This document shows, one piece after another, positions 1 through 44,271 of a stretch of 64,000 nucleotides of DNA. Positions within the stretch are counted from its first letter, which is position 1. Each line of letters opens with the position of its first letter. The notes beneath the pieces are model-generated. The model saw only the letters and a program-made list of their open reading frames with translations. It did no database searches and had not been told where the DNA came from. The position numbers were made by a program, and so were the translations under genes. Where the stretch lies: the NCBI GenBank assembly GCA_040954595.2, contig CM082587.2:11990053-12054052 (forward strand). Reading direction: 5' to 3'. Origin of the DNA: Balanoglossus misakiensis (Eukaryota; Animalia; Hemichordata).

Positions 1-473
1 GCCACCAAGTAAAGTTCCACGCCGCCCACCACAGATGCCAGCATTCATTCATGCGAGTGAGTGTAATTGCAAATTTGCCTATTCTAGATCTGTAATGGAA
101 ATGGAGAAAGTACCTTATATTTTCTGTAAAATAGACATTTAATTGGCAAGCCGTCCTGCATCAATTATGAATTGTGTACATGCACTAAAGCGCCCTCACT
201 GCTGGGTGTGTTGTATGGTCTTTAACCCTGTTTCAAATTAGAGTACTTTCTGCAATTTCAAGACAGATCTTACGTGCCATTGGAGAGCTCCATTGACTGG
301 TCATTCATACTGTTTTCATTCATTCATTGCGGCATCAATATATTTTATCTATTCTAGCCAAAGAGCTTGGCACCTGTTGAAATGAACTCATCTGCTGTGG
401 GCCAGTTTATTGGTGGCAGTTGAGCTGAGGAGAGCACCTTCCTTCCCGGCACGCCACCAAGTAAAGTTCCACG
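1..473. repeat. Tail of 452-bp satellite array preceding cassette 1
   Basis: Same sequence as the monomers at 8620-21109; diverges from the satellite at 474 (ccacg|tgcattcc versus ccacg|ccgccc). Confidence 0.97.
90..266. mobile_element. 177-bp MITE-like module B (representative; 66 more full copies in the arrays)
   Basis: Left end agatCTGTaatggaaatggagaaagtac matches the reverse complement of the right end, agatCTGTcttgaaattgcagaaagtac, at 23/28. Flanked by AT on both sides. Absent from the short monomers. Confidence 0.8.
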
Positions 474-2263
474 TGCATTCCTGGCCCTGGTTTTATTTAT
501 GTTTACAGACAATATTGCATTTTTGTACAAGTATTTTAATCAACTATAAATTTTGAATGTGTCATTTACCTGAACCGGTCATGTTGACCAGAATGATACA
601 TTTCTGCCTTCACTCACCCTATAAATATGTGATTGAGACATAGGTCATTTGCATAAGCTAACATACCAGAAAGTAAGCATATCTGTTGTTTTCCCTGTGT
701 CACTGCCATCAAAGTAAAAATTAGACGTTGTGTAGAGCAAACTCCAATTTTTTGTTCTCAATAAACATGGATGAATTACATAGAATGTGTTTGTTGTTTA
801 CAGTCTTTAAATGACACATTAGATTATGCACTTTACAAAACGTTTCTGAGAAACAAGTGACTAACTAGTTTCTTTCCACTGTGGCCAACGTGGTTCACTG
901 TTTGTGTCAGAATCTCTCTGTTTTGCAAGGATTTTGAAATCATAGTGGTGACATGCATAGTGAAAATCAGCTACTTTCAAATGTCCGTCATGTTCATGCT
1001 GTAATTGAATTTTCAAAGCTGGGCTGGCGTGTTTTTTCTTATTTACATAAGTATCACACTTTATACATGTATCTTCATGGGGTTTTTTGAGTCCCGTATT
1101 TAGGTCCTCTCTCACAATTTTACGAAATATCGTATAACTGACAGTTGTTCTTCCCAGAAGAGATTGGTTGGTTATGAACTCTCGGTGTAACTGCGATATA
1201 CTGTGGTCCGGCGCCAGGTACGGTTTAAATCGAGGATTCCTGCAGTAGTGAGATTCTACAATTCTGTGCCTGCGTACGTGTTCAGTGATATCAGTCAGCA
1301 AATTTGGATTGAGTTTCCGACGATGCCCTTTGTGTCGGCCCCTTGCATCTGGCATCAGACCAGTAAAGTTCCATGTGCATTCCTGGCCCTGGTTTTATTT
1401 ATGTTTACAGACAATATTGCATTTTTGTACAAGTATTTTAATCAACTATAAATTTTGAATGTGTCATTTACCTGAACCGGTCATGTTGACCAGAATGATA
1501 CATTTCTGCCTTCACTCACCCTATAAATATGTGATTGAGACATAGGTCATTTGCATAAGCTAACATACCAGAAAGTAAGCATATCTGTTGTTTTCCCTGT
1601 GTCACTGCCATCAAAGTAAAAATTAGACGTTGTGTAGAGCAAACTCCAATTTTTTGTTCTCAATAAACATGGATGAATTACATAGAATGTGTTTGTTGTT
1701 TACAGTCTTTAAATGACACATTAGATTATGCACTTTACAAAACGTTTCTGAGAAACAAGTGACTAACTAGTTTCTTTCCACTGTGGCCAACGTGGTTCAC
1801 TGTTTGTGTCAGAATCTCTCTGTTTTGCAAGGATTTTGAAATCATAGTGGTGACATGCATAGTGAAAATCAGCTACTTTCAAATGTCCGTCATGTTCATG
1901 CTGTAATTGAATTTTCAAAGCTGGGCTGGCGTGTTTTTTCTTATTTACATAAGTATCACACTTTATACATGTATCTTCATGGGGTTTTCTGAGTCCCGTA
2001 TTTAGGTCCTCTCTCACAATTTTACGAAATATCGTATAACTGACAGTTGTTCTTCCCAGAAGAGATTGGTTGGTTATGAACTCTCGGTGTAACTGCGATA
2101 TACTGTGGTCCGGCGCCAGGTACGGTTTAAATCGAGGATTCCTGCAGTAGTGAGATTCTACAATTCTGTGCCTGCGTACGTGTTCAGTGATATCAGTCAG
2201 CAAATTTGGATTGAGTTTCCGACGATGCCCTTTGTGTCGGCCCCTTGCATCTGGCATCAGACC
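460..2263. repeat. 902-bp tandem duplication (3' half and downstream region of the transposase N-half gene)
   Basis: 460-1361 and 1362-2263 are nearly identical. Both start agtaaagttcca; ORF stops at 861 and 1763 are 902 apart; one K/R difference. Confidence 0.95.
861..1355 (-). pseudogene. 5'-truncated duplicate of the transposase N-half ORF (164 aa, open frame)
   Basis: Identical to the last 164 aa of 1763-2719 except GLKKP versus GLRKP; the breakpoint lies a few bp upstream of an internal ATG. Confidence 0.75.
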
Positions 2264-2719
2264 AGTTGAACAGTGCATCATTTTGCTTAGAACGGTTCTA
2301 GTCCGCCTCTCACTAATGCCAAATAATTTCAGGAATGCATTTTTGCAGACAGTAACCGTTTCACCGCCTTCATTCACCAGGTGATAACGAACCGATTTCT
2401 TGTGTGACTTCATCTGTATATCCATCAGTTTGTAGAGCATCAAGTTCTGTTCATTATACACGCGACCATCAAAATATTTTCTCGTGGTGCCTAAAACATG
2501 CGTACTCCCAAGCTTCCGCAGACAATTCCCTTGAACGCAGGCGCATTCCAAGGAAAGACTGTCAATATCTGGAAAAGGGCGATTTTTCCTTGGTTTTTGT
2601 CTCGGACACGTCTTTTTAGAATTCCTACGTGGCTTGTTGGCTCGAGCTGACAGTTCGGTTCTGCGTTGCTGCCACACAGGAATGGGTTCCCACGCATAAG
2701 CAACTCCCCGGCAGGCCAT
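1763..2719 (-). CDS. Sola-like transposase N-terminal half (CxC, VCK, ESHY, CxxC-H Zn/DNA-binding region), 318 aa
   Basis: Motifs CACVQGNC, VCKNAFLKLFGIS, DARGRH, ESHYCR..YL...SI and KPHEDTCIKC..H occur in the order seen N-terminal to the catalytic core of Sola1-type transposases. Start context accATGg. Confidence 0.8.
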   Translation of the reverse strand: MACRGVAYAWEPIPVWQQRRTELSARANKPRRNSKKTCPRQKPRKNRPFPDIDSLSLECACVQGNCLRKLGSTHVLGTTRKYFDGRVYNEQNLMLYKLMDIQMKSHKKSVRYHLVNEGGETVTVCKNAFLKLFGISERRTRTVLSKMMHCSTGLMPDARGRHKGHRRKLNPNLLTDITEHVRRHRIVESHYCRNPRFKPYLAPDHSISQLHREFITNQSLLGRTTVSYTIFRKIVREDLNTGLRKPHEDTCIKCDTYVNKKKHASPALKIQLQHEHDGHLKVADFHYACHHYDFKILAKQRDSDTNSEPRWPQWKETS

Positions 2720-2890
2720 GGTCACAGCTGAAGTATTTGTTCAAGTACTGACTGACTAAACGCGGCATGGAACAAACGAACGAACGAACGAACGACTTCA
2801 CGTTCGGAAAAAAAATCGTTGCGAGCTGTTGGGTGCCTCTATAGTTGTCGGCAACCGTTCTTTTTTATTGCTAAACAATGCTGTCAGAGC
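2720..2890. promoter_or_regulatory. Putative bidirectional promoter with (GAAC)n microsatellite
   Basis: 171 bp between two divergent Kozak-context ATGs; contains gaacaaacgaacgaacgaacgaacga and TTCGGAA. Confidence 0.55.
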
Positions 2891-3904
2891 ATGGAAGGTG
2901 TGGTGGAAAACGAACAGAGGTTTTGTACGACCAACGATTGGATGGTGCTACATATGGACTTCCACAAGTCATTGCCGGTTCCTAAACTCAGCTCTGAAGA
3001 CTTTTACTTTAAATCGAAATTGCAAATGAAGCTCCTTGGAATTTACAACGGGACAACGGAAAAGATGCATTGTTATGTATGGACAGAGCTCGATAGCAGA
3101 AAGTCTCCCGATGAAGTTATTACCTGTCTAAATCACTTTTTTTATAACTCGGGTGTGACCAGCAGACATGCAGTTATTTACAGCGACAACTGCCGTGCCG
3201 AATTCAAGTGTGGGAAGTTAATGTTTTACTATGACTATCTGTTACGAAAGGGCGTGTTTCGACGAATTGACTATAAAACTCTTGTGGCTGGACACACGTA
3301 CTCCACCTGTGACCGAGTTTTTGCGTCCATTGAAAGGCATGCAAGTCGTTTCCAGAGTATAGAGACACCTCACGATTGGACATCTGTGATTCGAGGATCT
3401 TCTCTGAATGGGAACATTGGAGTTACGGAGATGACTCACAGAGACTTTTTCAATTATTCTGATTTCCTGAAAAATGAGTACGTTGTGCGTTATGCAGATA
3501 CAAACAATGTAACTTTTTACTACCAAGCCATGCACTATTTTAATTTTGGAGAAGGAGAAAGGCTTGATACCGACGGCAACCTCAGAACATTTAGTCATGC
3601 AGATAAAGTTTGGGTGAGAACATCTCTAGATCCAAGCGAGACCCCGATTGTAGTCGACTTTAGAAAGAAGAAGCAGAACCGGCGTTTACAAGATTGTACG
3701 CTGAACAAACTTTATCAGGAACGTCGACCACTGGCGAGCAAAGTTTGGCGGGATCTTCAGAGTTTAGCCAAAAATTACCTGTCTCCGGAGGCAATAGAAT
3801 TTTATAGGAATCTACCGCTTCAGGAGAGTAGTGGCACCTCTGCAGACCCGTACGCCTTTCATGATGATGACGACGACGATGATGATGATATGGGCGGTGG
3901 TTGA
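2891..3904 (+). CDS. Sola-like DDE transposase catalytic half, 337 aa, acidic tail
   Basis: Motifs MDFHKSLPVP..FYFKSKL, CYVWTE..DEVITCL, IYSDNC, GHTYSTCDRVFASIE form an RNase H-like DDE/D pattern. Start agcATGg preferred over TTG at 2819. Ends in D9. Confidence 0.85.
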   Translation: MEGVVENEQRFCTTNDWMVLHMDFHKSLPVPKLSSEDFYFKSKLQMKLLGIYNGTTEKMHCYVWTELDSRKSPDEVITCLNHFFYNSGVTSRHAVIYSDNCRAEFKCGKLMFYYDYLLRKGVFRRIDYKTLVAGHTYSTCDRVFASIERHASRFQSIETPHDWTSVIRGSSLNGNIGVTEMTHRDFFNYSDFLKNEYVVRYADTNNVTFYYQAMHYFNFGEGERLDTDGNLRTFSHADKVWVRTSLDPSETPIVVDFRKKKQNRRLQDCTLNKLYQERRPLASKVWRDLQSLAKNYLSPEAIEFYRNLPLQESSGTSADPYAFHDDDDDDDDDMGGG

Positions 3905-4065
3905 ACAAACTGTCCTTTTCATGACGACAGTGATTTTGGATATTTGATGTGCGTGCACAGTTTATATGTAATATTTTCACACGAACGAGTTTTGACTGAA
4001 TTTGATTAAAGAATGTACTCGATAATTAACAAATGTGCTGAATCGTGGTTATTATGTTGTTAATT

Positions 4066-4090
4066 TTTGTTTGTTTGTTTGTTTGTTTGT
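4066..4090. repeat. (TTTG)n microsatellite
   Basis: tttgtttgtttgtttgtttgtttgt read directly. Confidence 0.9.
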
Positions 4091-4286
4091 AAACAATTTC
4101 CGTTCATTCAACTGGCTACAAAGTTGGATTTTTGTACTGGGAAGCGATAAACTCGCACATCAAAACCGGGGAGACTCGATCATTTTTCCCTGCAGGTAGC
4201 CTGAAAAGCACCCGGGCAGAGATTACGTCATATATGGTCCACTTTAATACGAAATTATGCAAATGTGACATTTCACGGAAACGGCG

Positions 4287-4295
4287 TATATAAAA
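4287..4295 (+). promoter_or_regulatory. TATA box of the SET gene
   Basis: TATATAAAA about 100 bp upstream of ATG 4388; a CRE-like TTACGTCA lies at ~4223. Confidence 0.6.
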
Positions 4296-4387
4296 GCGAC
4301 CCTGGGCTATTGTTCGGAATGCGTCATCGACGAGAGAGTGACTGATAATTCTTCTACCTCGAGTCAACCATTCTGTATATACTGAAC

Positions 4388-5714
4388 ATGGCTAGCTGGC
4401 GCAGGAAGAGACAAGGCAATGTGCGGTCTGTAATCAACGAACGGCACCGCTCAGTTCAGTGTCCCTTTCTTCAAAAGTGGATCGGTGAGCAATTGGTATT
4501 TTCAGGTCGTTCAGAGGATGAAGTCCAGTCCAGTACTGTATTTGAGAGCTACAAATGTTGGGTTGAAAACTATTCGTCGGCGGACAATCAAGTAATGATT
4601 ATGGTTACTAAAGCTCGATTTTTCAAGGTGAGAATGATCGCATTTTTCTTCCCCCCCCCCCTCCCTCCCCCAAGGGACTCGTTTTCTGTCTCTTTTAAAC
4701 CTGTAACTTAACGAAAAGGAAGTTTTTCACATATCTCTTTGTTGACACTATAGCAATTTGGAGCGCGGATGCTTCAAGAGAATAGCGTTACCAAATCAAA
4801 GTCGGCCGGGGTTAATATTTATAGAGGTGTTCGTCTGAAAGCTGGTTCGCGAAGAATCTCAACGGGGAAACCTGAGCACAGTGTACTTCAGACCAGGGCA
4901 AGGGCATTTCTTGATGACGCCAGCGTGACCGTTCCGATCGAGGTAAGAATGGTGTTTTGTTTGGACTAGGACAATAGAACGTTGCAATGAGTGTGTCAAT
5001 GGGTGTCCAAGTGCAAACGTGGTCGGCTTCTGTCCACAAATGCCATTAATTTTAGGCAGGATTTATAAAATTGTCAATGAAGAATACAAAAATGAAAAAC
5101 AATAGTTAATAGCAAACGGGTAGGATTGCAAGGGCTTGTAAAACGGTACACACTGTACCAGGAAGTTTGCAACACTAATGAAGAATGTATATGATATATT
5201 TAGGTGAGAACTGTTCGCGATCGCCGGGACGCAGGACGGTGCGCGTTTTCGACGAGGGATCTTCAAGCCTGGAACGTCGTCTGCGAATACCGGGGCACGG
5301 TTATTAGCGTTGAAGAAGCTAGTCGGCGTGATGAACTTTACAGGGCAGAGGGGAAACGACCACGCATGTTTCATCTCTACATTGGAAAGAGACACGTTGT
5401 GTGAGTGTATCACTTAGTCGAATATATGGTCATATATTGCAAAGCATCTGTCGAAATAGAAAACGTAATATTGTCTATATTTTCCTCATTAACGCAGCAT
5501 TGACGGATACGATGTCCCAGCCGGTGAAGAAAATTTAGCGGGCCTAATAAATCACAGTCAGCAGAACGCCAACTTGGTACCGGTTCGGATCGGAGAGCGC
5601 CTGGTTTTCTTTGCAACCAGGAATCTTTGTCAGGGAGTAGAGCTTTTGTATGATTACGGTGACGGGGGTGAAGAGGATTTCTTCAGTGGTTCTCAAACTT
5701 TTCCTGAAAATTAA
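4388..5714 (+). CDS. Winged-helix + SETD8/PR-Set7-like SET methyltransferase, 280 aa, 4 exons (4388-4627, 4754-4942, 5204-5400, 5498-5714)
   Basis: Three GT-AG introns (phases 0, 0, 2) join one open frame with GRCAF..CEYRG..EA.RR..LY, IDG, GLINHS and ELLYDYGD, and no Cys post-SET. The N-terminus (W..E..V....VFESY..W..F....YRGVRLK) resembles an RFX/D5-C winged helix. Confidence 0.85.
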
Positions 5715-5759
5715 GGCATTAACACATCAACGCTTCGGGATGTCGTAACGGCGGCAAGG

Positions 5760-5779
5760 CGGGGGGGGGGGGGGGGGGG
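5760..5779. repeat. Poly-G tract
   Basis: About 20 G; one base longer in copy 2. Confidence 0.85.
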
Positions 5780-6621
5780 CGTGAAAATGTTTGTATCAGG
5801 AACAAAATTCCCGTGCAAATCACCTTGATCCGGGTGGGTGGACTATTCGCGACAAATGTTGAAATCATACAAAGCATTTTACTTAATTAACCCATTTTTT
5901 TCATTTATTTGTTTACAGTTTACAACGTCATAGAGAAGTTGAACTAGAGACTGGATCAGCGTGGGTGACACCATAGTACACCAATGTTTTCTTCAGTTTG
6001 ATTCAATTGTAATTTAAAACTGAGATTGCCTAACGCTTTCCCAGATTTTTTTAACCACTGAGAAACTGTGGGTTTTTTTCTGGGTTTTGGTGCGAGGTGA
6101 TCTCAGTCAGTGGTGTTAATTTAATTAATCATTTTCTTTTCCTATTTACGTCGACTGAAATGTATTTTGATAGGTGATAGTCATACCATAAAAAAATCTT
6201 ACGGCGCGACTGCCAAAATGTACATTTATTTGTCCGTTCCAAGTTATTTTGTGTATGTGTGATGGGTGCCGGTGACTGTGCAGGGTTGATTTCCCTAGAG
6301 CGACTGTTATATTCGTTTTCCAACGATGATGAATTTACATGTTATTTGCTTGGCATTTTGACGCAGAGACACTTCTGAAAACACAAACCTATTAATTATG
6401 CCACGGGTGTAAATTGATCACATTAAAAGAGGCTTTAGACGTTTGCCGCGAGCTCCTGGTGGGCAGAATCTTGTCAGCCCAAATTTGACTATAAGTACAT
6501 AGCCAATGATGTGACGCTCTCCCACATCCTTCGCCGCGCCTTTTCGCTGATTTACAGCATCTTGCGTAAACACTGTCATTTGATCTTGCTTGGCAGAAGT
6601 CAACTTGCTCTATACTACATT

Positions 6622-6987
6622 ATGGCGGCCAAGCTCAACTGCATATCAGATAATGCCAAGGAGCGTTTGAGAGGCATCCTCGCCAGAAGGAGTCGCGTTT
6701 CCGGTGACTGTGTGCTCTGGACGGGTGCAGCTTGTCGAAACGGCTATGGCTCTATTACGTTCAGAGATGAGAACACTCTAACCGCCTATGTCCATCACAT
6801 TGCACTCCTAATTAACGGAGTGCAATTGGTGGGCAGGCGGTTAGAGTGTTCTCATCTTTGCAACGAAAAGCTATGCATCCGCCCAGAGCACATTGTCCAG
6901 GAAACGCGACTCCTAAACATTTCACGAAAGACGTGCTTTAAATCCCCAAAAGGGGAGTGTCACCACGATCCCAGGTGCCTAAGGTGA
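6622..6987 (+). CDS. His-Cys box / His-Me finger endonuclease (I-PpoI-like), 121 aa
   Basis: Motifs CVLWTG..GYG, HHIA, SHLCNEKLCIRPEH..E....N..RKTC and CHHDPRC. Start attATGg preferred over GTG at 6511. Confidence 0.88.
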   Translation: MAAKLNCISDNAKERLRGILARRSRVSGDCVLWTGAACRNGYGSITFRDENTLTAYVHHIALLINGVQLVGRRLECSHLCNEKLCIRPEHIVQETRLLNISRKTCFKSPKGECHHDPRCLR

Positions 6988-7400
6988 GTAATCCTCTTCT
7001 CATTTGATATGTATTGTGTGACCCTGCAGTTGAAACGCTTTCATCAATAATTTGCGGCGCGTGGGTAATCTCGGTGTTATTGACAATGCAGCCGGCCCAA
7101 ACATTTTTAAATTAACACTGTTTCTGACTGTATTAACGAAATGTCCAATTTGCAAGTAGCCTATAGACAACCCTTTTGAATGAGTTTTGTCTCGTTGAGA
7201 TTTTATACATAAGGAACAATCTAGATTTATTTTAGAAGACACTGTTCTTTTAAAACAGCTAGCATAATACAGCTAAATTTCGGAATTTCCGGACAATTTT
7301 CGGAATTCCTTTTAAATTTGAGAAATTTTTCATCAGATATAAGTGTTACTATTTATTGGACATGTTTTTATCATTGTTTACTTTTTAAGGTCATTCTCAT

Positions 7401-7425
7401 CCCCCCCCCCCCCCCCCAAAAAAAA
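7401..7425. repeat. Poly-C/poly-A tract
   Basis: Abutting C and A runs whose lengths vary among the copies. Confidence 0.85.
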
Positions 7426-7974
7426 GCCGCTTTAGGCTTCATGTTCAGTAAAAAATCTGGAAAGTTCAGCTGAATTTTACACTGATCACACATTTTTGGG
7501 AAGGTCTGGCGCAAAATAAAGGATGACAAATGTAAATCTAATGTCACATTTGTAAACCTCTAAGTATTGTACACTCATTCTATTAAGTATATGCAAATAG
7601 TACGGATAATTTTTTCGGAATGTGGAATTCCGAAATTAGTTCGGAACGTGTTAGCAGTGAAGAGATCACCACTGAGGGTTGGAAGGCCTTGCCAGAAATT
7701 AACGCGTAAAGTACGCCCTCACAGGCCATGTAAACAAGGTCAAATAAGGCCGTCTGGCAAACGAATGATTAATTCAACGCGCCATTTGAGCCGAGCTGAG
7801 TTGGTCTGAGTTGCGTATCACACAGACTTAGGCTGAATGTCAGTGGAGTAACCAGTCCGTTTTAGATTTACCAATGATGTGAATTTAATTTCTTCACCCA
7901 GAAAAACAGAACACAACTTGTCTGCAACATGATGCTGGAGGTGACACATGACAGAGAAGTGGATCCGCGTTGTC

Positions 7975-8302
7975 AACACAGATGCCAGCATTCAAAAGGG
8001 GAGTGCCACCTGCTAAAATCAACTCATCTGCTGTTGGCCCATTTTACCTGTGGCAACTGTTCAGAGGAGACAACGTTTATTCCGTGCAAGCCAACACGCA
8101 ATGTTGGGGTCTACCTGTCAACACAGATGCAAGCATTCATGTGAGTGAGTATCAGGACTGACCTTGTTTTGCTGAATAATTCATAATGCCTATTTTAGAA
8201 TTCTTAGAGGCATTTGGAGTTCATTGCCTGGTCAACCAAACTACACCCCTTAACAGCTGAAACAAAATGCGTATTGTGTTCATTCATTCATTGCTTCAAT
8301 AT
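7975..8302 (+). repeat. Diverged copy of satellite part A inside the cassette
   Basis: Collinear matches to A: cacagatgccagcattca, aactcatctgctgttggcc, gtgagtgagt, gcctattttagaattctta, ttcattcattcattgc. Confidence 0.85.
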
Positions 8303-8619
8303 ATATAGGCAACATGAGTATCAAGTAGCACTATTTGTTTACGATTGTATTCATGAAAACTTCCCACTAACAATTCCACAGTTAATATTGAACACATTTA
8401 TCCAACAAGGTCAAAAGAAAAAGGGAATCTTCTGGTTCCAAAATACGCCACAAATGTGGGTCAACATACAGTGAAATATTATGGTGCTCAAATATGCAAC
8501 ATATCAAATCTGTCTCATCAAAGTCATGCTTTAAAAAAGAATTGAAAAGGTATTATTTATCCATTTGACTGCTGTATTTTCAGAAGGAAAACAAACTGAA
8601 TTTGGTTTTTCATGTACAA

Positions 8620-11600
8620 ATATTTTCTGTAAAATAGACATTTAATTGGCAAGCCGTCCTGCATCAATTATTAATTGTGTACATGCACTAAAGCGCCCTC
8701 ACTGCTGGGTGTGTTGTATGGTCTTTAACCCTGTTTCAAATTAGAGTACTTTCTGCAATTTCAAGACAGATCTTACGTGCCATTGGAGAGCTCCATTGAC
8801 TGGTCATTCATACTGTTTTCATTCATTCATTGCGGCATCAATATATTTTATGTATTCTAGCCAAAGAGCTTGGCACCTGTTGAAATGAACTCATCTGCTG
8901 TGGGCCAGTTTATTGGTGGCAGTTGAGCTGAGGAGAGCACCTTCCTTCCCGGCACGCCACCAAGTAAAGTTCCACGCCGCCCACCACAGATGCCAGCATT
9001 CATTCATGCGAGTGAGTGTAATTGCAAATTTGCCTATTCTAGATCTGTAATGGAAATGGAGAAAGTACCTTATATTTTCTGTAAAATAGACATTTAATTG
9101 GCAAGCCGTCCTGCATCAATTATGAATTGTGTACATGCACTAAAGCGCCCTCACTGCTGGGTGTGTTGTATGGTCTTTAACCCTGTTTCAAATTAGAGTA
9201 CTTTCTGCAATTTCAAGACAGATCTTACGTGCCATTGGAGAGCTCCATTGACTGGTCATTCATACTGTTTTCATTCATTCATTGCGGCATCAATATATTT
9301 TATCTATTCTAGCCAAAGAGCTTGGCACCTGTTGAAATGAACTCATCTGCTGTGGGCCAGTTTATTGGTGGCAGTTGAGCTGAGGAGAGCACCTTCCTTC
9401 CCGGCACGCCACCAAGTAAAGTTCCACGCCGCCCACCACAGATGCCAGCATTCATTCATGCGAGTGAGTGTAATTGCAAATTTGCCTATTCTAGATCTGT
9501 AATGGAAATGGAGAAAGTACCTTATATTTTCTGTAAAATAGACATTTAATTGGCAAGCCGTCCTGCATCAATTATGAATTGTGTACATGCACTAAAGCGC
9601 CCTCACTGCTGGGTGTGTTGTATGGTCTTTAACCCTGTTTCAAATTAGAGTACTTTCTGCAATTTCAAGACAGATCTTACGTGCCATTGGAGAGCTCCAT
9701 TGACTGGTCATTCATACTGTTTTCATTCATTCATTGCGGCATCAATATATTTTATCTATTCTAGCCAAAGAGCTTGGCACCTGTTGAAATGAACTCATCT
9801 GCTGTGGGCCAGTTTATTGGTGGCAGTTGAGCTGAGGAGAGCACCTTCCTTCCCGGCACGCCACCAAGTAAAGTTCCACGCCGCCCACCACAGATGCCAG
9901 CATTCATTCATGCGAGTGAGTGTAATTGCAAATTTGCCTATTCTAGATCTGTAATGGAAATGGAGAAAGTACCTTATATTTTCTGTAAAATAGACATTTA
10001 ATTGGCAAGCCGTCCTGCATCAATTATGAATTGTGTACATGCACTAAAGCGCCCTCACTGCTGGGTGTGTTGTATGGTCTTTAACCCTGTTTCAAATTAG
10101 AGTACTTTCTGCAATTTCAAGACAGATCTTACGTGCCATTGGAGAGCTCCATTGACTGGTCATTCATACTGTTTTCATTCATTCATTGCGGCATCAATAT
10201 ATTTTATCTATTCTAGCCAAAGAGCTTGGCACCTGTTGAAATGAACTCATCTGCTGTGGGCCAGTTTATTGGTGGCAGTTGAGCTGAGAAGAGCACCTTC
10301 CTTCCCGGCACGCCACCAAGTAAAGTTCCACGCCGCCCACCACAGATGCCAGCATTCATTCATGCGAGTGAGTGTAATTGCAAATTTGCCTATTCTAGAA
10401 TCTTACGTGCCATTGGAGAGCTCCATTGACTGGTCATTCATACTGTTTTCATTCATTCATTGCGGCATCAATATATTTTATCTATTCTAGCCAAAGAGCT
10501 TGGCACCTGTTGAAATGAACTCATCTGCTGTGGGCCAGTTTATTGGTGGCAGTTGAGCTGAGGAGAGCACCTTCCTTCCCGGGACGCCACCAAGTAAAGT
10601 TCCACGCCGCCCACCACAGATGCCAGCATTCATTCATGCGAGTGAGTGTAATTGCAAATTTGCCTATTCTAGATTCTTACGTGCCATTGGAGAGCTCCAT
10701 TGACTGGTCATTCATACTGTTTTCATTCATTCATTGCGGCATCAATATATTTTATCTATTCTAGCCAAAGAGCTTGGCACCTGTTGAAATGAACTCATCT
10801 GCTGTGGGCCAGTTTATTGGTGGCAGTTGAGCTGAGGAGAGCACCTTCCTTCCCGGCACGCCACCAAGTAAAGTTCCACGCCGCCCACCACAGATGCCAG
10901 CATTCATTCATGCGAGTGAGTGTAATTGCAAATTTGCCTATTCTAGATCTGTAATGGAAATGGAGAAAGTACCTTATATTTTCTGTAAAATAGACATTTA
11001 ATTGGCAAGCCGTCCTGCATCAATTATGAATTGTGTACATGCACTAAAGCGCCCTCACTGCTGGGTGTGTTGTATGGTCTTTAACCCTGTTTCAAATTAG
11101 AGTACTTTCTGCAATTTCAAGACAGATCTTACGTGCCATTGGAGAGCTCCATTGACTGGTCATTCATACTGTTTTCATTCATTCATTGCGGCATCAATAT
11201 ATTTTATCTATTCTAGCCAAAGAGCTTGGCACCTGTTGAAATGAACTCATCTGCTGTGGGCCAGTTTATTGGTGGCAGTTGAGCTGAGGAGAGCACCTTC
11301 CTTCCCGGCACGCCACCAAGTAAAGTTCCACGCCGCCCACCACAGATGCCAGCATTCATTCATGCGAGTGAGTGTAATTGCAAATTTGCCTATTCTAGAT
11401 CTGTAATGGAAATGGAGAAAGTACCTTATATTTTCTGTAAAATAGACATTTAATTGGCAAGCCGTCCTGCATCAATTATGAATTGTGTACATGCACTAAA
11501 GCGCCCTCACTGCTGGGTGTGTTGTATGGTCTTTAACCCTGTTTCAAATTAGAGTACTTTCTGCAATTTCAAGACAGATCTTACGTGCCATTGGAGAGCT

Positions 11601-20600: not shown

Positions 20601-21109
20601 CAGTTGAGCTGAGGAGAGCACCTTCCTTCCCGGCACGCCACCAAGTAAAGTTCCACGCCGCCCACCACAGATGCCAGCATTCATTCATGCGAGTGAGTGT
20701 AATTGCAAATTTGCCTATTCTAGATCTGTAATGGAAATGGAGAAAGTACCTTATATTTTCTGTAAAATAGACATTTAATTGGCAAGCCGTCCTGCATCAA
20801 TTATGAATTGTGTACATGCACTAAAGCGCCCTCACTGCTGGGTGTGTTGTATGGTCTTTAACCCTGTTTCAAATTAGAGTACTTTCTGCAATTTCAAGAC
20901 AGATCTTACGTGCCATTGGAGAGCTCCATTGACTGGTCATTCATACTGTTTTCATTCATTCATTGCGGCATCAATATATTTTATCTATTCTAGCCAAAGA
21001 GCTTGGCACCTGTTGAAATGAACTCATCTGCTGTGGGCCAGTTTATTGGTGGCAGTTGAGCTGAGGAGAGCACCTTCCTTCCCGGCACGCCACCAAGTAA
21101 AGTTCCACG
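8620..21109. repeat. Satellite array 1: 22x452 + 5x274 + 1x275 + 2x272 + 357 bp partial
   Basis: Unit lengths sum exactly to 12490 bp. Confidence 0.95.
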
Positions 21110-21496
21110 TGCATTCCTGGCCCTGGTTTTATTTATGTTTACAGACAATATTGCATTTTTGTACAAGTATTTTAATCAACTATAAATTTTGAATGTGTCA
21201 TTTACCTGAACCGGTCATGTTGACCAGAATGATACATTTCTGCCTTCACTCACCCTATAAATATGTGATTGAGACATAGGTCATTTGCATAAGCTAACAT
21301 ACCAGAAAGTAAGCATATCTGTTGTTTTCCCTGTGTCACTGCCATCAAAGTAAAAATTAGACGTTGTGTAGAGCAAACTCCAATTTTTTGTTCTCAATAA
21401 ACATGGATGAATTACATAGAATGTGTTTGTTGTTTACAGTCTTTAAATGACACATTAGATTATGCACTTTACAAAACGTTTCTGAGAAACAAGTGA

Positions 21497-21991
21497 CTAA
21501 CTAGTTTCTTTCCACTGTGGCCAACGTGGTTCACTGTTTGTGTCAGAATCTCTCTGTTTTGCAAGGATTTTGAAATCATAGTGGTGACATGCATAGTGAA
21601 AATCAGCTACTTTCAAATGTCCGTCATGTTCATGCTGTAATTGAATTTTCAAAGCTGGGCTGGCGTGTTTTTTCTTATTTACATAAGTATCACACTTTAT
21701 ACATGTATCTTCATGGGGTTTTTTGAGTCCCGTATTTAGGTCCTCTCTCACAATTTTACGAAATATCGTATAACTGACAGTTGTTCTTCCCAGAAGAGAT
21801 TGGTTGGTTATGAACTCTCGGTGTAACTGCGATATACTGTGGTCCGGCGCCAGGTACGGTTTAAATCGAGGATTCCTGCAGTAGTGAGATTCTACAATTC
21901 TGTGCCTGCGTACGTGTTCAGTGATATCAGTCAGCAAATTTGGATTGAGTTTCCGACGATGCCCTTTGTGTCGGCCCCTTGCATCTGGCAT
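21497..21991 (-). pseudogene. Truncated transposase N-half duplicate, copy 2
   Basis: Translation identical to 861-1355. Confidence 0.75.
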
Positions 21992-22398
21992 CAGACCAGT
22001 AAAGTTCCATGTGCATTCCTGGCCCTGGTTTTATTTATGTTTACAGACAATATTGCATTTTTGTACAAGTATTTTAATCAACTATAAATTTTGAATGTGT
22101 CATTTACCTGAACCGGTCATGTTGACCAGAATGATACATTTCTGCCTTCACTCACCCTATAAATATGTGATTGAGACATAGGTCATTTGCATAAGCTAAC
22201 ATACCAGAAAGTAAGCATATCTGTTGTTTTCCCTGTGTCACTGCCATCAAAGTAAAAATTAGACGTTGTGTAGAGCAAACTCCAATTTTTTGTTCTCAAT
22301 AAACATGGATGAATTACATAGAATGTGTTTGTTGTTTACAGTCTTTAAATGACACATTAGATTATGCACTTTACAAAACGTTTCTGAGAAACAAGTGA

Positions 22399-23355
22399 CT
22401 AACTAGTTTCTTTCCACTGTGGCCAACGTGGTTCACTGTTTGTGTCAGAATCTCTCTGTTTTGCAAGGATTTTGAAATCATAGTGGTGACATGCATAGTG
22501 AAAATCAGCTACTTTCAAATGTCCGTCATGTTCATGCTGTAATTGAATTTTCAAAGCTGGGCTGGCGTGTTTTTTCTTATTTACATAAGTATCACACTTT
22601 ATACATGTATCTTCATGGGGTTTTCTGAGTCCCGTATTTAGGTCCTCTCTCACAATTTTACGAAATATCGTATAACTGACAGTTGTTCTTCCCAGAAGAG
22701 ATTGGTTGGTTATGAACTCTCGGTGTAACTGCGATATACTGTGGTCCGGCGCCAGGTACGGTTTAAATCGAGGATTCCTGCAGTAGTGAGATTCTACAAT
22801 TCTGTGCCTGCGTACGTGTTCAGTGATATCAGTCAGCAAATTTGGATTGAGTTTCCGACGATGCCCTTTGTGTCGGCCCCTTGCATCTGGCATCAGACCA
22901 GTTGAACAGTGCATCATTTTGCTTAGAACGGTTCTAGTCCGCCTCTCACTAATGCCAAATAATTTCAGGAATGCATTTTTGCAGACAGTAACCGTTTCAC
23001 CGCCTTCATTCACCAGGTGATAACGAACCGATTTCTTGTGTGACTTCATCTGTATATCCATCAGTTTGTAGAGCATCAAGTTCTGTTCATTATACACGCG
23101 ACCATCAAAATATTTTCTCGTGGTGCCTAAAACATGCGTACTCCCAAGCTTCCGCAGACAATTCCCTTGAACGCAGGCGCATTCCAAGGAAAGACTGTCA
23201 ATATCTGGAAAAGGGCGATTTTTCCTTGGTTTTTGTCTCGGACACGTCTTTTTAGAATTCCTACGTGGCTTGTTGGCTCGAGCTGACAGTTCGGTTCTGC
23301 GTTGCTGCCACACAGGAATGGGTTCCCACGCATAAGCAACTCCCCGGCAGGCCAT
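22399..23355 (-). CDS. Sola-like transposase N-terminal half, copy 2
   Basis: Translation identical to 1763-2719. Confidence 0.8.
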   Translation of the reverse strand: MACRGVAYAWEPIPVWQQRRTELSARANKPRRNSKKTCPRQKPRKNRPFPDIDSLSLECACVQGNCLRKLGSTHVLGTTRKYFDGRVYNEQNLMLYKLMDIQMKSHKKSVRYHLVNEGGETVTVCKNAFLKLFGISERRTRTVLSKMMHCSTGLMPDARGRHKGHRRKLNPNLLTDITEHVRRHRIVESHYCRNPRFKPYLAPDHSISQLHREFITNQSLLGRTTVSYTIFRKIVREDLNTGLRKPHEDTCIKCDTYVNKKKHASPALKIQLQHEHDGHLKVADFHYACHHYDFKILAKQRDSDTNSEPRWPQWKETS

Positions 23356-23526
23356 GGTCACAGCTGAAGTATTTGTTCAAGTACTGACTGACTAAACGCG
23401 GCATGGAACAAACGAACGAACGAACGAACGACTTCACGTTCGGAAAAAAAATCGTTGCGAGCTGTTGGGTGCCTCTATAGTTGTCGGCAACCGTTCTTTT
23501 TTATTGCTAAACAATGCTGTCAGAGC

Positions 23527-24540
23527 ATGGAAGGTGTGGTGGAAAACGAACAGAGGTTTTGTACGACCAACGATTGGATGGTGCTACATATGGACTTCCA
23601 CAAGTCATTGCCGGTTCCTAAACTCAGCTCTGAAGACTTTTACTTTAAATCGAAATTGCAAATGAAGCTCCTTGGAATTTACAACGGGACAACGGAAAAG
23701 ATGCATTGTTATGTATGGACAGAGCTCGATAGCAGAAAGTCTCCCGATGAAGTTATTACCTGTCTAAATCACTTTTTTTATAACTCGGGTGTGACCAGCA
23801 GACATGCAGTTATTTACAGCGACAACTGCCGTGCCGAATTCAAGTGTGGGAAGTTAATGTTTTACTATGACTATCTGTTACGAAAGGGCGTGTTTCGACG
23901 AATTGACTATAAAACTCTTGTGGCTGGACACACGTACTCCACCTGTGACCGAGTTTTTGCGTCCATTGAAAGGCATGCAAGTCGTTTCCAGAGTATAGAG
24001 ACACCTCACGATTGGACATCTGTGATTCGAGGATCTTCTCTGAATGGGAACATTGGAGTTACGGAGATGACTCACAGAGACTTTTTCAATTATTCTGATT
24101 TCCTGAAAAATGAGTACGTTGTGCGTTATGCAGATACAAACAATGTAACTTTTTACTACCAAGCCATGCACTATTTTAATTTTGGAGAAGGAGAAAGGCT
24201 TGATACCGACGGCAACCTCAGAACATTTAGTCATGCAGATAAAGTTTGGGTGAGAACATCTCTAGATCCAAGCGAGACCCCGATTGTAGTCGACTTTAGA
24301 AAGAAGAAGCAGAACCGGCGTTTACAAGATTGTACGCTGAACAAACTTTATCAGGAACGTCGACCACTGGCGAGCAAAGTTTGGCGGGATCTTCAGAGTT
24401 TAGCCAAAAATTACCTGTCTCCGGAGGCAATAGAATTTTATAGGAATCTACCGCTTCAGGAGAGTAGTGGCACCTCTGCAGACCCGTACGCCTTTCATGA
24501 TGATGACGACGACGATGATGATGATATGGGCGGTGGTTGA
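23527..24540 (+). CDS. Sola-like DDE transposase catalytic half, copy 2
   Basis: Translation identical to 2891-3904. Confidence 0.85.
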   Translation: MEGVVENEQRFCTTNDWMVLHMDFHKSLPVPKLSSEDFYFKSKLQMKLLGIYNGTTEKMHCYVWTELDSRKSPDEVITCLNHFFYNSGVTSRHAVIYSDNCRAEFKCGKLMFYYDYLLRKGVFRRIDYKTLVAGHTYSTCDRVFASIERHASRFQSIETPHDWTSVIRGSSLNGNIGVTEMTHRDFFNYSDFLKNEYVVRYADTNNVTFYYQAMHYFNFGEGERLDTDGNLRTFSHADKVWVRTSLDPSETPIVVDFRKKKQNRRLQDCTLNKLYQERRPLASKVWRDLQSLAKNYLSPEAIEFYRNLPLQESSGTSADPYAFHDDDDDDDDDMGGG

Positions 24541-25023
24541 ACAAACTGTCCTTTTCATGACGACAGTGATTTTGGATATTTGATGTGCGTGCACAGTTTA
24601 TATGTAATATTTTCACACGAACGAGTTTTGACTGAATTTGATTAAAGAATGTACTCGATAATTAACAAATGTGCTGAATCGTGGTTATTATGTTGTTAAT
24701 TTTTGTTTGTTTGTTTGTTTGTTTGTAAACAATTTCCGTTCATTCAACTGGCTACAAAGTTGGATTTTTGTACTGGGAAGCGATAAACTCGCACATCAAA
24801 ACCGGGGAGACTCGATCATTTTTCCCTGCAGGTAGCCTGAAAAGCACCCGGGCAGAGATTACGTCATATATGGTCCACTTTAATACGAAATTATGCAAAT
24901 GTGACATTTCACGGAAACGGCGTATATAAAAGCGACCCTGGGCTATTGTTCGGAATGCGTCATCGACGAGAGAGTGACTGATAATTCTTCTACCTCGAGT
25001 CAACCATTCTGTATATACTGAAC

Positions 25024-26350
25024 ATGGCTAGCTGGCGCAGGAAGAGACAAGGCAATGTGCGGTCTGTAATCAACGAACGGCACCGCTCAGTTCAGTGTCC
25101 CTTTCTTCAAAAGTGGATCGGTGAGCAATTGGTATTTTCAGGTCGTTCAGAGGATGAAGTCCAGTCCAGTACTGTATTTGAGAGCTACAAATGTTGGGTT
25201 GAAAACTATTCGTCGGCGGACAATCAAGTAATGATTATGGTTACTAAAGCTCGATTTTTCAAGGTGAGAATGATCGCATTTTTCTTCCCCCCCCCCCTCC
25301 CTCCCCCAAGGGACTCGTTTTCTGTCTCTTTTAAACCTGTAACTTAACGAAAAGGAAGTTTTTCACATATCTCTTTGTTGACACTATAGCAATTTGGAGC
25401 GCGGATGCTTCAAGAGAATAGCGTTACCAAATCAAAGTCGGCCGGGGTTAATATTTATAGAGGTGTTCGTCTGAAAGCTGGTTCGCGAAGAATCTCAACG
25501 GGGAAACCTGAGCACAGTGTACTTCAGACCAGGGCAAGGGCATTTCTTGATGACGCCAGCGTGACCGTTCCGATCGAGGTAAGAATGGTGTTTTGTTTGG
25601 ACTAGGACAATAGAACGTTGCAATGAGTGTGTCAATGGGTGTCCAAGTGCAAACGTGGTCGGCTTCTGTCCACAAATGCCATTAATTTTAGGCAGGATTT
25701 ATAAAATTGTCAATGAAGAATACAAAAATGAAAAACAATAGTTAATAGCAAACGGGTAGGATTGCAAGGGCTTGTAAAACGGTACACACTGTACCAGGAA
25801 GTTTGCAACACTAATGAAGAATGTATATGATATATTTAGGTGAGAACTGTTCGCGATCGCCGGGACGCAGGACGGTGCGCGTTTTCGACGAGGGATCTTC
25901 AAGCCTGGAACGTCGTCTGCGAATACCGGGGCACGGTTATTAGCGTTGAAGAAGCTAGTCGGCGTGATGAACTTTACAGGGCAGAGGGGAAACGACCACG
26001 CATGTTTCATCTCTACATTGGAAAGAGACACGTTGTGTGAGTGTATCACTTAGTCGAATATATGGTCATATATTGCAAAGCATCTGTCGAAATAGAAAAC
26101 GTAATATTGTCTATATTTTCCTCATTAACGCAGCATTGACGGATACGATGTCCCAGCCGGTGAAGAAAATTTAGCGGGCCTAATAAATCACAGTCAGCAG
26201 AACGCCAACTTGGTACCGGTTCGGATCGGAGAGCGCCTGGTTTTCTTTGCAACCAGGAATCTTTGTCAGGGAGTAGAGCTTTTGTATGATTACGGTGACG
26301 GGGGTGAAGAGGATTTCTTCAGTGGTTCTCAAACTTTTCCTGAAAATTAA
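25024..26350 (+). CDS. Winged-helix + SETD8-like SET gene (4 exons), copy 2
   Basis: Same exons and splice sites at +20636. Confidence 0.85.
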
Positions 26351-27258
26351 GGCATTAACACATCAACGCTTCGGGATGTCGTAACGGCGGCAAGGCGGGG
26401 GGGGGGGGGGGGGGGGCGTGAAAATGTTTGTATCAGGAACAAAATTCCCGTGCAAATCACCTTGATCCGGGTGGGTGGACTATTCGCGACAAATGTTGAA
26501 ATCATACAAAGCATTTTACTTAATTAACCCATTTTTTTCATTTATTTGTTTACAGTTTACAACGTCATAGAGAAGTTGAACTAGAGACTGGATCAGCGTG
26601 GGTGACACCATAGTACACCAATGTTTTCTTCAGTTTGATTCAATTGTAATTTAAAACTGAGATTGCCTAACGCTTTCCCAGATTTTTTTAACCACTGAGA
26701 AACTGTGGGTTTTTTTCTGGGTTTTGGTGCGAGGTGATCTCAGTCAGTGGTGTTAATTTAATTAATCATTTTCTTTTCCTATTTACGTCGACTGAAATGT
26801 ATTTTGATAGGTGATAGTCATACCATAAAAAAATCTTACGGCGCGACTGCCAAAATGTACATTTATTTGTCCGTTCCAAGTTATTTTGTGTATGTGTGAT
26901 GGGTGCCGGTGACTGTGCAGGGTTGATTTCCCTAGAGCGACTGTTATATTCGTTTTCCAACGATGATGAATTTACATGTTATTTGCTTGGCATTTTGACG
27001 CAGAGACACTTCTGAAAACACAAACCTATTAATTATGCCACGGGTGTAAATTGATCACATTAAAAGAGGCTTTAGACGTTTGCCGCGAGCTCCTGGTGGG
27101 CAGAATCTTGTCAGCCCAAATTTGACTATAAGTACATAGCCAATGATGTGACGCTCTCCCACATCCTTCGCCGCGCCTTTTCGCTGATTTACAGCATCTT
27201 GCGTAAACACTGTCATTTGATCTTGCTTGGCAGAAGTCAACTTGCTCTATACTACATT

Positions 27259-27624
27259 ATGGCGGCCAAGCTCAACTGCATATCAGATAATGCCAAGGAG
27301 CGTTTGAGAGGCATCCTCGCCAGAAGGAGTCGCGTTTCCGGTGACTGTGTGCTCTGGACGGGTGCAGCTTGTCGAAACGGCTATGGCTCTATTACGTTCA
27401 GAGATGAGAACACTCTAACCGCCTATGTCCATCACATTGCACTCCTAATTAACGGAGTGCAATTGGTGGGCAGGCGGTTAGAGTGTTCTCATCTTTGCAA
27501 CGAAAAGCTATGCATCCGCCCAGAGCACATTGTCCAGGAAACGCGACTCCTAAACATTTCACGAAAGACGTGCTTTAAATCCCCAAAAGGGGAGTGTCAC
27601 CACGATCCCAGGTGCCTAAGGTGA
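27259..27624 (+). CDS. His-Cys box endonuclease, copy 2
   Basis: Translation identical to 6622-6987. Confidence 0.88.
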   Translation: MAAKLNCISDNAKERLRGILARRSRVSGDCVLWTGAACRNGYGSITFRDENTLTAYVHHIALLINGVQLVGRRLECSHLCNEKLCIRPEHIVQETRLLNISRKTCFKSPKGECHHDPRCLR

Positions 27625-29255
27625 GTAATCCTCTTCTCATTTGATATGTATTGTGTGACCCTGCAGTTGAAACGCTTTCATCAATAATTTGCGGCGCGTG
27701 GGTAATCTCGGTGTTATTGACAATGCAGCCGGCCCAAACATTTTTAAATTAACACTGTTTCTGACTGTATTAACGAAATGTCCAATTTGCAAGTAGCCTA
27801 TAGACAACCCTTTTGAATGAGTTTTGTCTCGTTGAGATTTTATACATAAGGAACAATCTAGATTTATTTTAGAAGACACTGTTCTTTTAAAACAGCTAGC
27901 ATAATACAGCTAAATTTCGGAATTTCCGGACAATTTTCGGAATTCCTTTTAAATTTGAGAAATTTTTCATCAGATATAAGTGTTACTATTTATTGGACAT
28001 GTTTTTATCATTGTTTACTTTTTAAGGTCATTCTCATCCCCCCCCCCCCCCCAAAAAAAAAGCCGCTTTAGGCTTCATGTTCAGTAAAAAATCTGGAAAG
28101 TTCAGCTGAATTTTACACTGATCACACATTTTTGGGAAGGTCTGGCGCAAAATAAAGGATGACAAATGTAAATCTAATGTCACATTTGTAAACCTCTAAG
28201 TATTGTACACTCATTCTATTAAGTATATGCAAATAGTACGGATAATTTTTTCGGAATGTGGAATTCCGAAATTAGTTCGGAACGTGTTAGCAGTGAAGAG
28301 ATCACCACTGAGGGTTGGAAGGCCTTGCCAGAAATTAACGCGTAAAGTACGCCCTCACAGGCCATGTAAACAAGGTCAAATAAGGCCGTCTGGCAAACGA
28401 ATGATTAATTCAACGCGCCATTTGAGCCGAGCTGAGTTGGTCTGAGTTGCGTATCACACAGACTTAGGCTGAATGTCAGTGGAGTAACCAGTCCGTTTTA
28501 GATTTACCAATGATGTGAATTTAATTTCTTCACCCAGAAAAACAGAACACAACTTGTCTGCAACATGATGCTGGAGGTGACACATGACAGAGAAGTGGAT
28601 CCGCGTTGTCAACACAGATGCCAGCATTCAAAAGGGGAGTGCCACCTGCTAAAATCAACTCATCTGCTGTTGGCCCATTTTACCTGTGGCAACTGTTCAG
28701 AGGAGACAACGTTTATTCCGTGCAAGCCAACACGCAATGTTGGGGTCTACCTGTCAACACAGATGCAAGCATTCATGTGAGTGAGTATCAGGACTGACCT
28801 TGTTTTGCTGAATAATTCATAATGCCTATTTTAGAATTCTTAGAGGCATTTGGAGTTCATTGCCTGGTCAACCAAACTACACCCCTTAACAGCTGAAACA
28901 AAATGCGTATTGTGTTCATTCATTCATTGCTTCAATATATATAGGCAACATGAGTATCAAGTAGCACTATTTGTTTACGATTGTATTCATGAAAACTTCC
29001 CACTAACAATTCCACAGTTAATATTGAACACATTTATCCAACAAGGTCAAAAGAAAAAGGGAATCTTCTGGTTCCAAAATACGCCACAAATGTGGGTCAA
29101 CATACAGTGAAATATTATGGTGCTCAAATATGCAACATATCAAATCTGTCTCATCAAAGTCATGCTTTAAAAAAGAATTGAAAAGGTATTATTTATCCAT
29201 TTGACTGCTGTATTTTCAGAAGGAAAACAAACTGAATTTGGTTTTTCATGTACAA

Positions 29256-42944: not shown

Positions 42945-44271
42945 ATGGCTAGCTGGCGCAGGAAGAGACAAGGCAATGTGCGGTCTGTAATCAACGAACG
43001 GCACCGCTCAGTTCAGTGTCCCTTTCTTCAAAAGTGGATCGGTGAGCAATTGGTATTTTCAGGTCGTTCAGAGGATGAAGTCCAGTCCAGTACTGTATTT
43101 GAGAGCTACAAATGTTGGGTTGAAAACTATTCGTCGGCGGACAATCAAGTAATGATTATGGTTACTAAAGCTCGATTTTTCAAGGTGAGAATGATCGCAT
43201 TTTTCTTCCCCCCCCCCCTCCCTCCCCCAAGGGACTCGTTTTCTGTCTCTTTTAAACCTGTAACTTAACGAAAAGGAAGTTTTTCACATATCTCTTTGTT
43301 GACACTATAGCAATTTGGAGCGCGGATGCTTCAAGAGAATAGCGTTACCAAATCAAAGTCGGCCGGGGTTAATATTTATAGAGGTGTTCGTCTGAAAGCT
43401 GGTTCGCGAAGAATCTCAACGGGGAAACCTGAGCACAGTGTACTTCAGACCAGGGCAAGGGCATTTCTTGATGACGCCAGCGTGACCGTTCCGATCGAGG
43501 TAAGAATGGTGTTTTGTTTGGACTAGGACAATAGAACGTTGCAATGAGTGTGTCAATGGGTGTCCAAGTGCAAACGTGGTCGGCTTCTGTCCACAAATGC
43601 CATTAATTTTAGGCAGGATTTATAAAATTGTCAATGAAGAATACAAAAATGAAAAACAATAGTTAATAGCAAACGGGTAGGATTGCAAGGGCTTGTAAAA
43701 CGGTACACACTGTACCAGGAAGTTTGCAACACTAATGAAGAATGTATATGATATATTTAGGTGAGAACTGTTCGCGATCGCCGGGACGCAGGACGGTGCG
43801 CGTTTTCGACGAGGGATCTTCAAGCCTGGAACGTCGTCTGCGAATACCGGGGCACGGTTATTAGCGTTGAAGAAGCTAGTCGGCGTGATGAACTTTACAG
43901 GGCAGAGGGGAAACGACCACGCATGTTTCATCTCTACATTGGAAAGAGACACGTTGTGTGAGTGTATCACTTAGTCGAATATATGGTCATATATTGCAAA
44001 GCATCTGTCGAAATAGAAAACGTAATATTGTCTATATTTTCCTCATTAACGCAGCATTGACGGATACGATGTCCCAGCCGGTGAAGAAAATTTAGCGGGC
44101 CTAATAAATCACAGTCAGCAGAACGCCAACTTGGTACCGGTTCGGATCGGAGAGCGCCTGGTTTTCTTTGCAACCAGGAATCTTTGTCAGGGAGTAGAGC
44201 TTTTGTATGATTACGGTGACGGGGGTGAAGAGGATTTCTTCAGTGGTTCTCAAACTTTTCCTGAAAATTAA
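42945..44271 (+). CDS. Winged-helix + SETD8-like SET gene (4 exons), copy 3
   Basis: Same exons and splice sites at +38557. Confidence 0.85.

Follow-up and report, generated by a model that had tools for sequence, protein, structure and literature searches.

A predicted winged-helix/SET fusion gene from the hemichordate Balanoglossus misakiensis, a candidate chromatin writer of a mobile element

Introduction

SETD8 (KMT5A, PR-Set7) monomethylates lysine 20 of histone H4 (H4K20). Two of its arginines, R188 and R192, anchor the enzyme on the nucleosome's acidic patch (PMC7893823, available text). On the nucleosome it makes no apparent contact with DNA, according to the accessible part of a further report (PMC10098044), and the enzyme alone does not account for the way in which proteins of this type are targeted to individual loci.

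SET genes are also found on mobile genomes. The available texts describe SET accessory genes in adomaviruses (PMC13696692; 10.1101/341131) and SET genes in MELD viruses (PMC8502044). The EO1 helicases of alpha adomaviruses bear an RFX-type winged helix (10.1101/341131, available part), and SET domains and winged helices of this type therefore coexist in the adomavirus gene pool. Among transposons, HarbingerS and MuDR elements of oomycetes carry SET cargo (PMC12730594, in the text accessible), as does the Phytophthora proto-Helentron-Pi, whose SET protein is likened to Clr4, is about 153 aa long, and is intronless (PMC4067079, likewise in part).

The locus considered here lies in a 64,000-nt stretch of the B. 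misakiensis genome (GenBank assembly GCA_040954595.2, contig CM082587.2, positions 11,990,053 to 12,054,052), referred to as the window. A preliminary description of this DNA had reported a spliced gene in which a winged helix is fused to a SETD8-like SET domain, and had placed that gene on a mobile element.

Gene Structure and Splicing

On the plus strand of the window a spliced gene is predicted to run from an ATG at position 4388, through three GT-AG introns, to a stop codon ending at 5714, with a product of 280 amino acids (Table 1). The LINHS and ELLYDYGD motifs are present in the translation, as the preliminary description had read them, together with AGRC, and a Cys post-SET is absent. 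Exon 4 retrieved one close protein, XP_070545977.1 of Ptychodera flava (RefSeq, 278 aa; hereafter P0001). The two proteins align end to end and gap-free at all three junctions, with 176 of 280 residues identical (63%; 46/80, 34/63, 46/66, and 50/71 by exon). Exon 1 alone as a query found no homologs. The junctions first proposed scored highest against P0001 each time among the frame-keeping GT/AG options within 45 nt (six, five, and two, respectively), and three of the five GTRAG words between 4300 and 5800 are the donors used. The four-exon model is thus borne out by the end-to-end match and by junction scoring.

Exon-sized relatives suggest that other members of the family are broken at the same positions, as deduced at the protein level from fragment ends. 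Gln or Lys, whose codons are able to end in AG, stands right before the start of exon 3 in five of six exon-3-like relatives, and the sixth starts there. Four of these six end 67-68 residues on, fitting a phase-2 GTRA donor, and the other two at 91 and 63; for comparison, the window's exon 3 spans 66 residues, and the corresponding stretch of the coral protein P0006 has 67. A further relative, P0110, terminates RFYK/VR, matching the exon-1 donor of the window. Additional spliced exons beyond the SET stop codon are suggested by a strong acceptor-like sequence (5895-5920) and by a donor, GTGAGT, where the downstream HNH ORF ends (6984-6990).

Table 1. Coordinates of the gene, its copies, and neighboring features in the window.
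Feature	Position	Strand	Description
Gene block	473..8619		8.15 kb, within 452/274/272-bp satellite array
Transposase-like protein, N-terminal half	1763..2719	-	No Pfam hit
Transposase-like protein, C-terminal half (DUF7869)	2891..3904	+	Pfam PF25273 E 1.4e-14; Atlas 0.97 to eukaryotic DUF7869 clusters
Compact promoter-like region	4223..4326	+	TTACGTCA 4223, ATGCAAAT 4257, TATATAA 4287, TGCGTCA 4320; motif matches without background test
Exon 1	4388..4627	+	aa 1-80: basic N-terminal tail, winged-helix helices 1-3 (RFX/D5-type); secondary structure from homolog model
Intron 1	4628..4753	+	126 nt, phase 0, GTGAGA...CTATAG
Exon 2	4754..4942	+	aa 81-143: helix 3 end, wing, conserved Arg114, n-SET-like helix
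Intron 2	4943..5203	+	261 nt, phase 0, GTAAGA...ATTTAG
Exon 3	5204..5400	+	aa 144-209: SET motif I (AGRC), Tyr172, remodelled i-SET PRMFHL; Pfam SET E 0.003
Intron 3	5401..5497	+	97 nt, phase 2, GTGAGT...ACGCAG
Exon 4	5498..5714	+	aa 209-280 and stop: NHS, ELLYDYGD, C-flank EEDFF; Pfam SET E 1.7e-7; PDB SETD8 matches
His-Me finger/HNH endonuclease ORF	6622..6987	+	PF05551 E 6.7e-13; PHROG HNH; downstream of the winged-helix/SET gene
Gene copy 2	25024..26350	+	Block 21109-29255; identical over 4200-5760
Gene copy 3	42945..44271	+	Block 39030-47178; identical over 4200-5760

The N-Terminal Winged Helix

Fold models were made for P0001, and the folds proposed for the window protein rest on this homolog. 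The AF2 model of P0001 (22-row alignment) has a pLDDT of 86.6 and a pTM of 0.82, and the N-terminal part folded alone a pLDDT of 78.5. Folded alone, the N-domain of P0001 superposes, with a topology of three helices and a wing hairpin, on the DNA-binding domains (DBDs) of RFX5 (Z 9.2, rmsd 2.7, 77 aligned) and RFX1 (Z 9.2, rmsd 2.2, 72/76 aligned). Behind them come the origin-binding domain of phage P4 (Z 7.7) and the primase-helicase C-terminus of ASFV PrimPol (Z 7.5); generic winged helices score lower (Z 6.2 and below). N-domain matches in BFVD and the Atlas are likewise Pox_D5/primase-helicase C-termini, the Atlas clusters (feature score 0.94) containing 14-18% Pox_D5. Against Pfam the N-terminus matches no family confidently and stays below the cut-offs of RFX_DNA_binding and Pox_D5 (for Pox_D5 a single one of 27 rows scores, at E 0.16 and 12.9 bits), and a two-sequence N-terminal profile found no match among PDB chains. 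On the P0001 models, the winged helix proposed in the preliminary description is confirmed and is of the RFX/P4-origin-binding/D5 type.

The winged helices of RFX DBDs, P4, and Pox_D5 share this subtype at 17-20% identity; they are joined to a helicase or dimerization domain, whereas the partner here is a SET domain. The wing of the N-domain is, as we take it, shorter than that of RFX. No RFX-box-like palindrome was found in window positions 1-9500, scanned with what we take to be the pattern of the RFX X-box.

The SET Domain

In the P0001 model the SET part (residues 118-271, n-SET helix included) lies closest to SET8 (1zkk; Z 17.2, rmsd 2.6, 146 aligned), more than 2 Z units above the best non-SET8 match (Z 14.6), and Foldseek also gives SET8. 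SETD8 is its best sequence match as well (E 9e-10). The earlier view of SETD8 as the closest characterized SET domain thus agrees with both sequence and predicted fold. With a profile of the family, MLL4 (4z4p, E 6.9e-24) is marginally ahead of SETD8 (E 5.7e-23), and the closeness to SETD8 is therefore not exclusive by sequence.

Many residues of SETD8, numbered here after the human sequence (PDB titles give Y245 and Y334 by name), have counterparts in the window protein. Those kept are Y172 (Y245), R185, D186 (E259), Y189, D211, N227-H228-S229 (N227-H228 being the equivalents of N298-H299), Y260 (Y334), Y262 (Y336), and D264, along with the RxxLY helix. In 19 of the 24 family rows with a winged helix (wH rows), Tyr172, Asn227, His228, and Tyr262 are all retained; the Y334 switch position is Trp in 15 of the 24. 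The preliminary description had doubted activity on the grounds that GxG in motif I reads GRC. Cys is found there in 15 of 121 SETD8-like matches lacking the winged helix (non-wH rows), and AGxC is common to 10 of the proteins compared. The corresponding motif of CpSET8, the SET8 of Cryptosporidium, is KGRC, and this enzyme methylates H4K20 in vitro (PMC9487757, available text). As far as these comparisons reach, GRC is therefore no defect and the doubt is removed; GRC as the sign of a dead enzyme is rejected in view of the active CpSET8 together with the non-wH matches.

The substrate side of the domain has been remodelled. The i-SET strand, G-C-Y-M-Y-Y-F in SETD8, reads R-P-R-M-F-H-L in the window, a change that is family-wide, with Pro at the C270 position and an insertion after DG. 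At the position of Y271, which presumably contacts SAM in SETD8, 98 of the 121 non-wH rows have Tyr and 18 Phe, compared with Arg in 11, Thr in 8, and Lys in 4 of the 24 wH rows. His347 and Trp349 of the His-Pro-Trp C-flank of SETD8 have no counterpart in the window protein or P0001; the C-flank Trp is found in 111/121 non-wH rows vs. 16/24 wH rows. His347 is presumed to act in H4/SAM binding, and for E259 and C270 roles are assumed likewise. The C-flank Trp (W349) contacts SAM in SETD8 (PMC9487757, text as available). Within the predicted C-flank helix of the P0001 model lie FF270-271, which could stand in for this missing Trp.

The position of Arg114, which follows the wing, is Arg in 21/24 wH rows and 79/121 non-wH rows. 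It aligns into human RRSSR (188-192), in a register (R188, R189, or R192) that differs between alignments. The preliminary description had linked the SETD8-type signature to H4K20. The part of this that stands is the retention of the catalytic Tyr and Asn-His residues; the i-SET strand, the His-Pro-Trp flank, and the grouping with SETD8 differ. Because the i-SET strand and C-flank are remodelled and MLL4 ranks level in the profile search, the assignment of H4K20 is weakened and is made here tentatively.

A Family of Winged-Helix SET Proteins

An HMMER search over 1.84 billion representatives gave 341 matches. Among the 149 listed besides P0001, 14 span from residue 40 or earlier to at least residue 229. 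A winged-helix profile marks 25 of 152 proteins, 24 of them with a SET segment (the window's included), a count that is partly circular because most of these rows seeded the profile. A word-based search with P0001 finds P0001 alone, the one annotated copy in P. flava. Twenty family records were looked up and are mostly from ENA, JGI, or Logan, on contigs of 1-6 kb (one of 18 kb). Named relatives among them are the partial coral protein KAJ7373262.1 of Desmophyllum and a multi-SET protein of a seadragon, in which the winged-helix profile found no winged helix. P0004 and P0081 are this seadragon protein, of 4152 aa with five SET domains, and a protein of 2865 aa that combines two SET domains with haemagglutinin-repeat and peptidase C80 domains. 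Many family matches are mutually divergent, paralog-like fragments. Scans of viral contigs, metagenomes, and prokaryote genomes, sensitive to close relatives only, confirmed no homolog loci.

In an unrooted quick tree of SET segments alone, 29 of 145 rows stand apart from the other 116 at SH-aLRT 96. This group comprises the 24 wH rows and five others, one of them the long-branch 2865-aa protein. A further unrooted SET tree, from which five long branches were dropped, splits the 24 family rows from 36 hand-picked canonical-like rows at 100/99. The window SET pairs with P0001 (99/99), and the two join P0003, P0006, and P0024, which share AGxC, more weakly (91/91). By these sequence comparisons the winged-helix/SET fusion constitutes a family of 24 divergent proteins, wider than the window locus, and its SET domain is a lineage separate from canonical SETD8, not SETD8 proper.

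Satellite Array and Neighboring Genes

The gene lies in a block that is present in the window in three copies and the start of a fourth, with 99.96-99.98% identity and starts spaced 20,636, 17,921, and 24,440 bp apart. Every copy begins after position 20 of the satellite, which resumes at position 117. All copies have identical junctions at one phase of the satellite and lack a target duplication, and they therefore reflect higher-order amplification of the array; independent insertions are ruled out by the shared junctions. In this amplification the gene itself is a passenger. From 8620 to 64000 the satellite consists of 452-bp units, with deletion variants of 274, 272, and 275 bp, and all 63 full units lie 0-2 nt from the reference. 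The satellite as a coding sequence is ruled out by stops in the three frames read. A 902-bp tandem duplication (456-1364/1359-2266) repeats the minus-strand ORF over its 3' part and is joined via short microhomology to the satellite end. The right end contains a satellite monomer that is about 70% diverged (7980-8290), which shares an 18-nt word (6947-6964, 7993-8010) with the HNH ORF where that frame ends.

Two kinds of neighbors bear on the proposed mobile element. DUF7869 we take to be a transposase, with the ORF at 1763..2719 as its N-terminal half by motif pattern. The two halves are head-to-head with starts about 170 bp apart and a poly(A)-like signal after each; the split gene reflects either an inversion or a natural split under a bidirectional promoter. 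The transposase-like ORF ends 484 bp upstream of the winged-helix/SET gene, in a tightly packed order, and the HNH endonuclease ORF lies downstream. Inside the HNH ORF is a near-perfect hairpin of about 230 nt (6688-6914; -163.7 kcal/mol, z -16, 0/200 shuffles), present in all three copies. Both of its arms code for parts of the domain, with the frame open on the plus strand only, and it could be a source of small RNAs or a DNA cruciform. Inverted repeats of 23 nt, 314 nt apart (7287-7646), are possibly a small non-autonomous insertion.

The placement of the gene on a mobile element is only partly supported: judged from the transposase-like and HNH neighbors, the gene is likely to be mobile-element cargo, and the structural hallmarks are absent. 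Terminal inverted repeats of the 8.15-kb block were not found, and no target-site duplication above 3 nt is present at its ends; entry into the array may have removed the original termini. No capsid, packaging ATPase, polymerase, or helicase was found among the ORFs of at least 120 aa or in the 9 of 22 smaller frames scanned, a survey that heavily spliced genes could escape. Rfam gave no matches over window positions 1-9500.

A Candidate Chromatin Writer and Its Alternatives

The four-exon gene is intact. The reading preferred here, held tentatively as the best single account, is that the fusion protein is the accessory chromatin writer of an element, monomethylating a nucleosomal lysine, most likely H4K20. 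The RFX/P4-origin-binding-type winged helix very probably binds DNA, as judged from the models, and would do so, with less assurance, at sites specific to the element. By analogy with SETD8, the conserved Arg right after the wing would dock on the nucleosome's acidic patch. Tyr172, Tyr260, and Tyr262 with Asn227-His228 would then pass one methyl group from SAM; activity is probable from the residues retained, and H4K20 as its target is possible. Such a mark would maintain a chromatin state on the element that favors expression, replication, or transposition. In the window, a block that once flanked the satellite would have been captured by the array and copied along with it.

The same architecture would fit a DNA-tethered, element-borne enzyme active on another lysine, whether at another histone site or on a non-histone protein, for example a replicase or transposase encoded by the element itself or a factor of host defence. 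This is unlikely, though the most probable of the alternatives. The family-wide replacement of CYMYYF by PRMxxL with residues inserted after DG, the Trp that 15 of 24 wH rows carry at the Y334 switch position, the separate SET lineage, and the tie of MLL4 with SETD8 in the profile search all speak for it; the lead of SET8 as best fold match and the retention of the n-SET helix, the RxxLY helix, and the anchor-position Arg speak against it. The window protein and P0001 both lack equivalents of W349, which contacts SAM in SETD8, and of Y271, which presumably does so as well. This could instead point to a weak or dead SET domain with a role in reading or shielding the H4 tail, or in competing with host SETD8, at DNA sites that the winged helix selects. 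Nineteen of 24 divergent members retain NHS and both active-site tyrosines, FF270-271 could replace the Trp, and GRC is compatible with activity, all of which make this reading improbable.

A different question is whether the gene belongs to an element at all. It could be an old host gene, domesticated or a lineage-specific transcriptional regulator, with the transposase and HNH remnants as chance neighbors in a repeat-rich region. Three intron positions common to other animal relatives and the single annotated P. flava copy fit a host gene as well, and no element termini were found. The record is patchy, with named members in acorn worm and coral only, many of the fragments are mutually divergent and paralog-like, the D5/P4-type winged helix and HNH are mobile-element modules, and the gene is tightly packed with the transposase-like ORF, so that a host gene appears rather unlikely. 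The preliminary description had also raised marking of the array and a link to CENP-A. In that case the protein would bind the satellite and write H4K20me1 over the array, in support of chromatin at centromeres or origins, a purpose for which the higher-order repeat would retain the block. Three intact, identical copies lie in a homogeneous array, and SET8 is efficient on CENP-A nucleosomes (PMC7893823, available text). Against this, the array is young beside a family that is much older and wider, one junction pair in all copies indicates co-amplification, and promoter and satellite have no 9-mer in common (0 observed vs. 1.2 expected); marking of the array is unsupported and very improbable.

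If the preferred reading, an element-borne writer, is true, nature would have hard-wired the targeting by fusing a winged helix of the origin-binding type to the enzyme, and animals would count among the organisms in which mobile elements encode histone writers of their own. With its divergent substrate strand the family is a test case for what sets H4K20 specificity, and the protein is small and suited to direct testing in vitro. A bolder extension, which we regard as doubtful, holds that undescribed, widespread animal elements encode single-chain, sequence-targeted H4K20 writers in which a viral origin-binding winged helix was grafted onto SETD8 at its nucleosome anchor, and that these writers license or compact the element's own DNA. 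On that view, the divergent wings would provide a naturally occurring series of site-specific histone methyltransferases of compact size (about 270 aa).

Comparison with Known Systems

SETD8 shares with the window protein the n-SET helix, Y245/Y334/Y336, NHS, the lack of a Cys post-SET, and, in a register that depends on the alignment, an Arg in the anchor region. It differs in having a long N-terminal region in place of the winged helix and in its CYMYYF i-SET strand and His-Pro-Trp C-flank, and the two fall into separate lineages. The top viral fold match of the P0001 model is A0A6F9EYM8 (E 2.8e-8), which is also the best fold match of the shark adomavirus SET (PMC13696692, accessible text). 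Adomaviruses and MELD viruses resemble the arrangement proposed here in carrying a small SET on a mobile genome; in the available accounts their SET domains and winged helices are on separate proteins, and the capsid, polymerase, and helicase of such viruses were not found among the ORFs of the block. The SET transposons of oomycetes likewise carry histone-methyltransferase cargo; their hosts are oomycetes, and the available texts mention no winged helix. No description of a winged-helix/SET fusion was found in the literature searched, a body to which Repbase Reports, subscription journals, and supplements did not belong. Transposons and fish viruses are already known to carry SET genes as cargo, and what appears new, within those searches, is its fusion to a DNA-binding domain. 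SETMAR, PRDM9, plant SUVH proteins, and VANC of Vandal elements are other cases in which a DNA-recognition module steers a chromatin mark or an element controls its own chromatin; their DNA-binding domains and SET subfamilies are unrelated to those described here, and SETMAR and PRDM9 are host genes.
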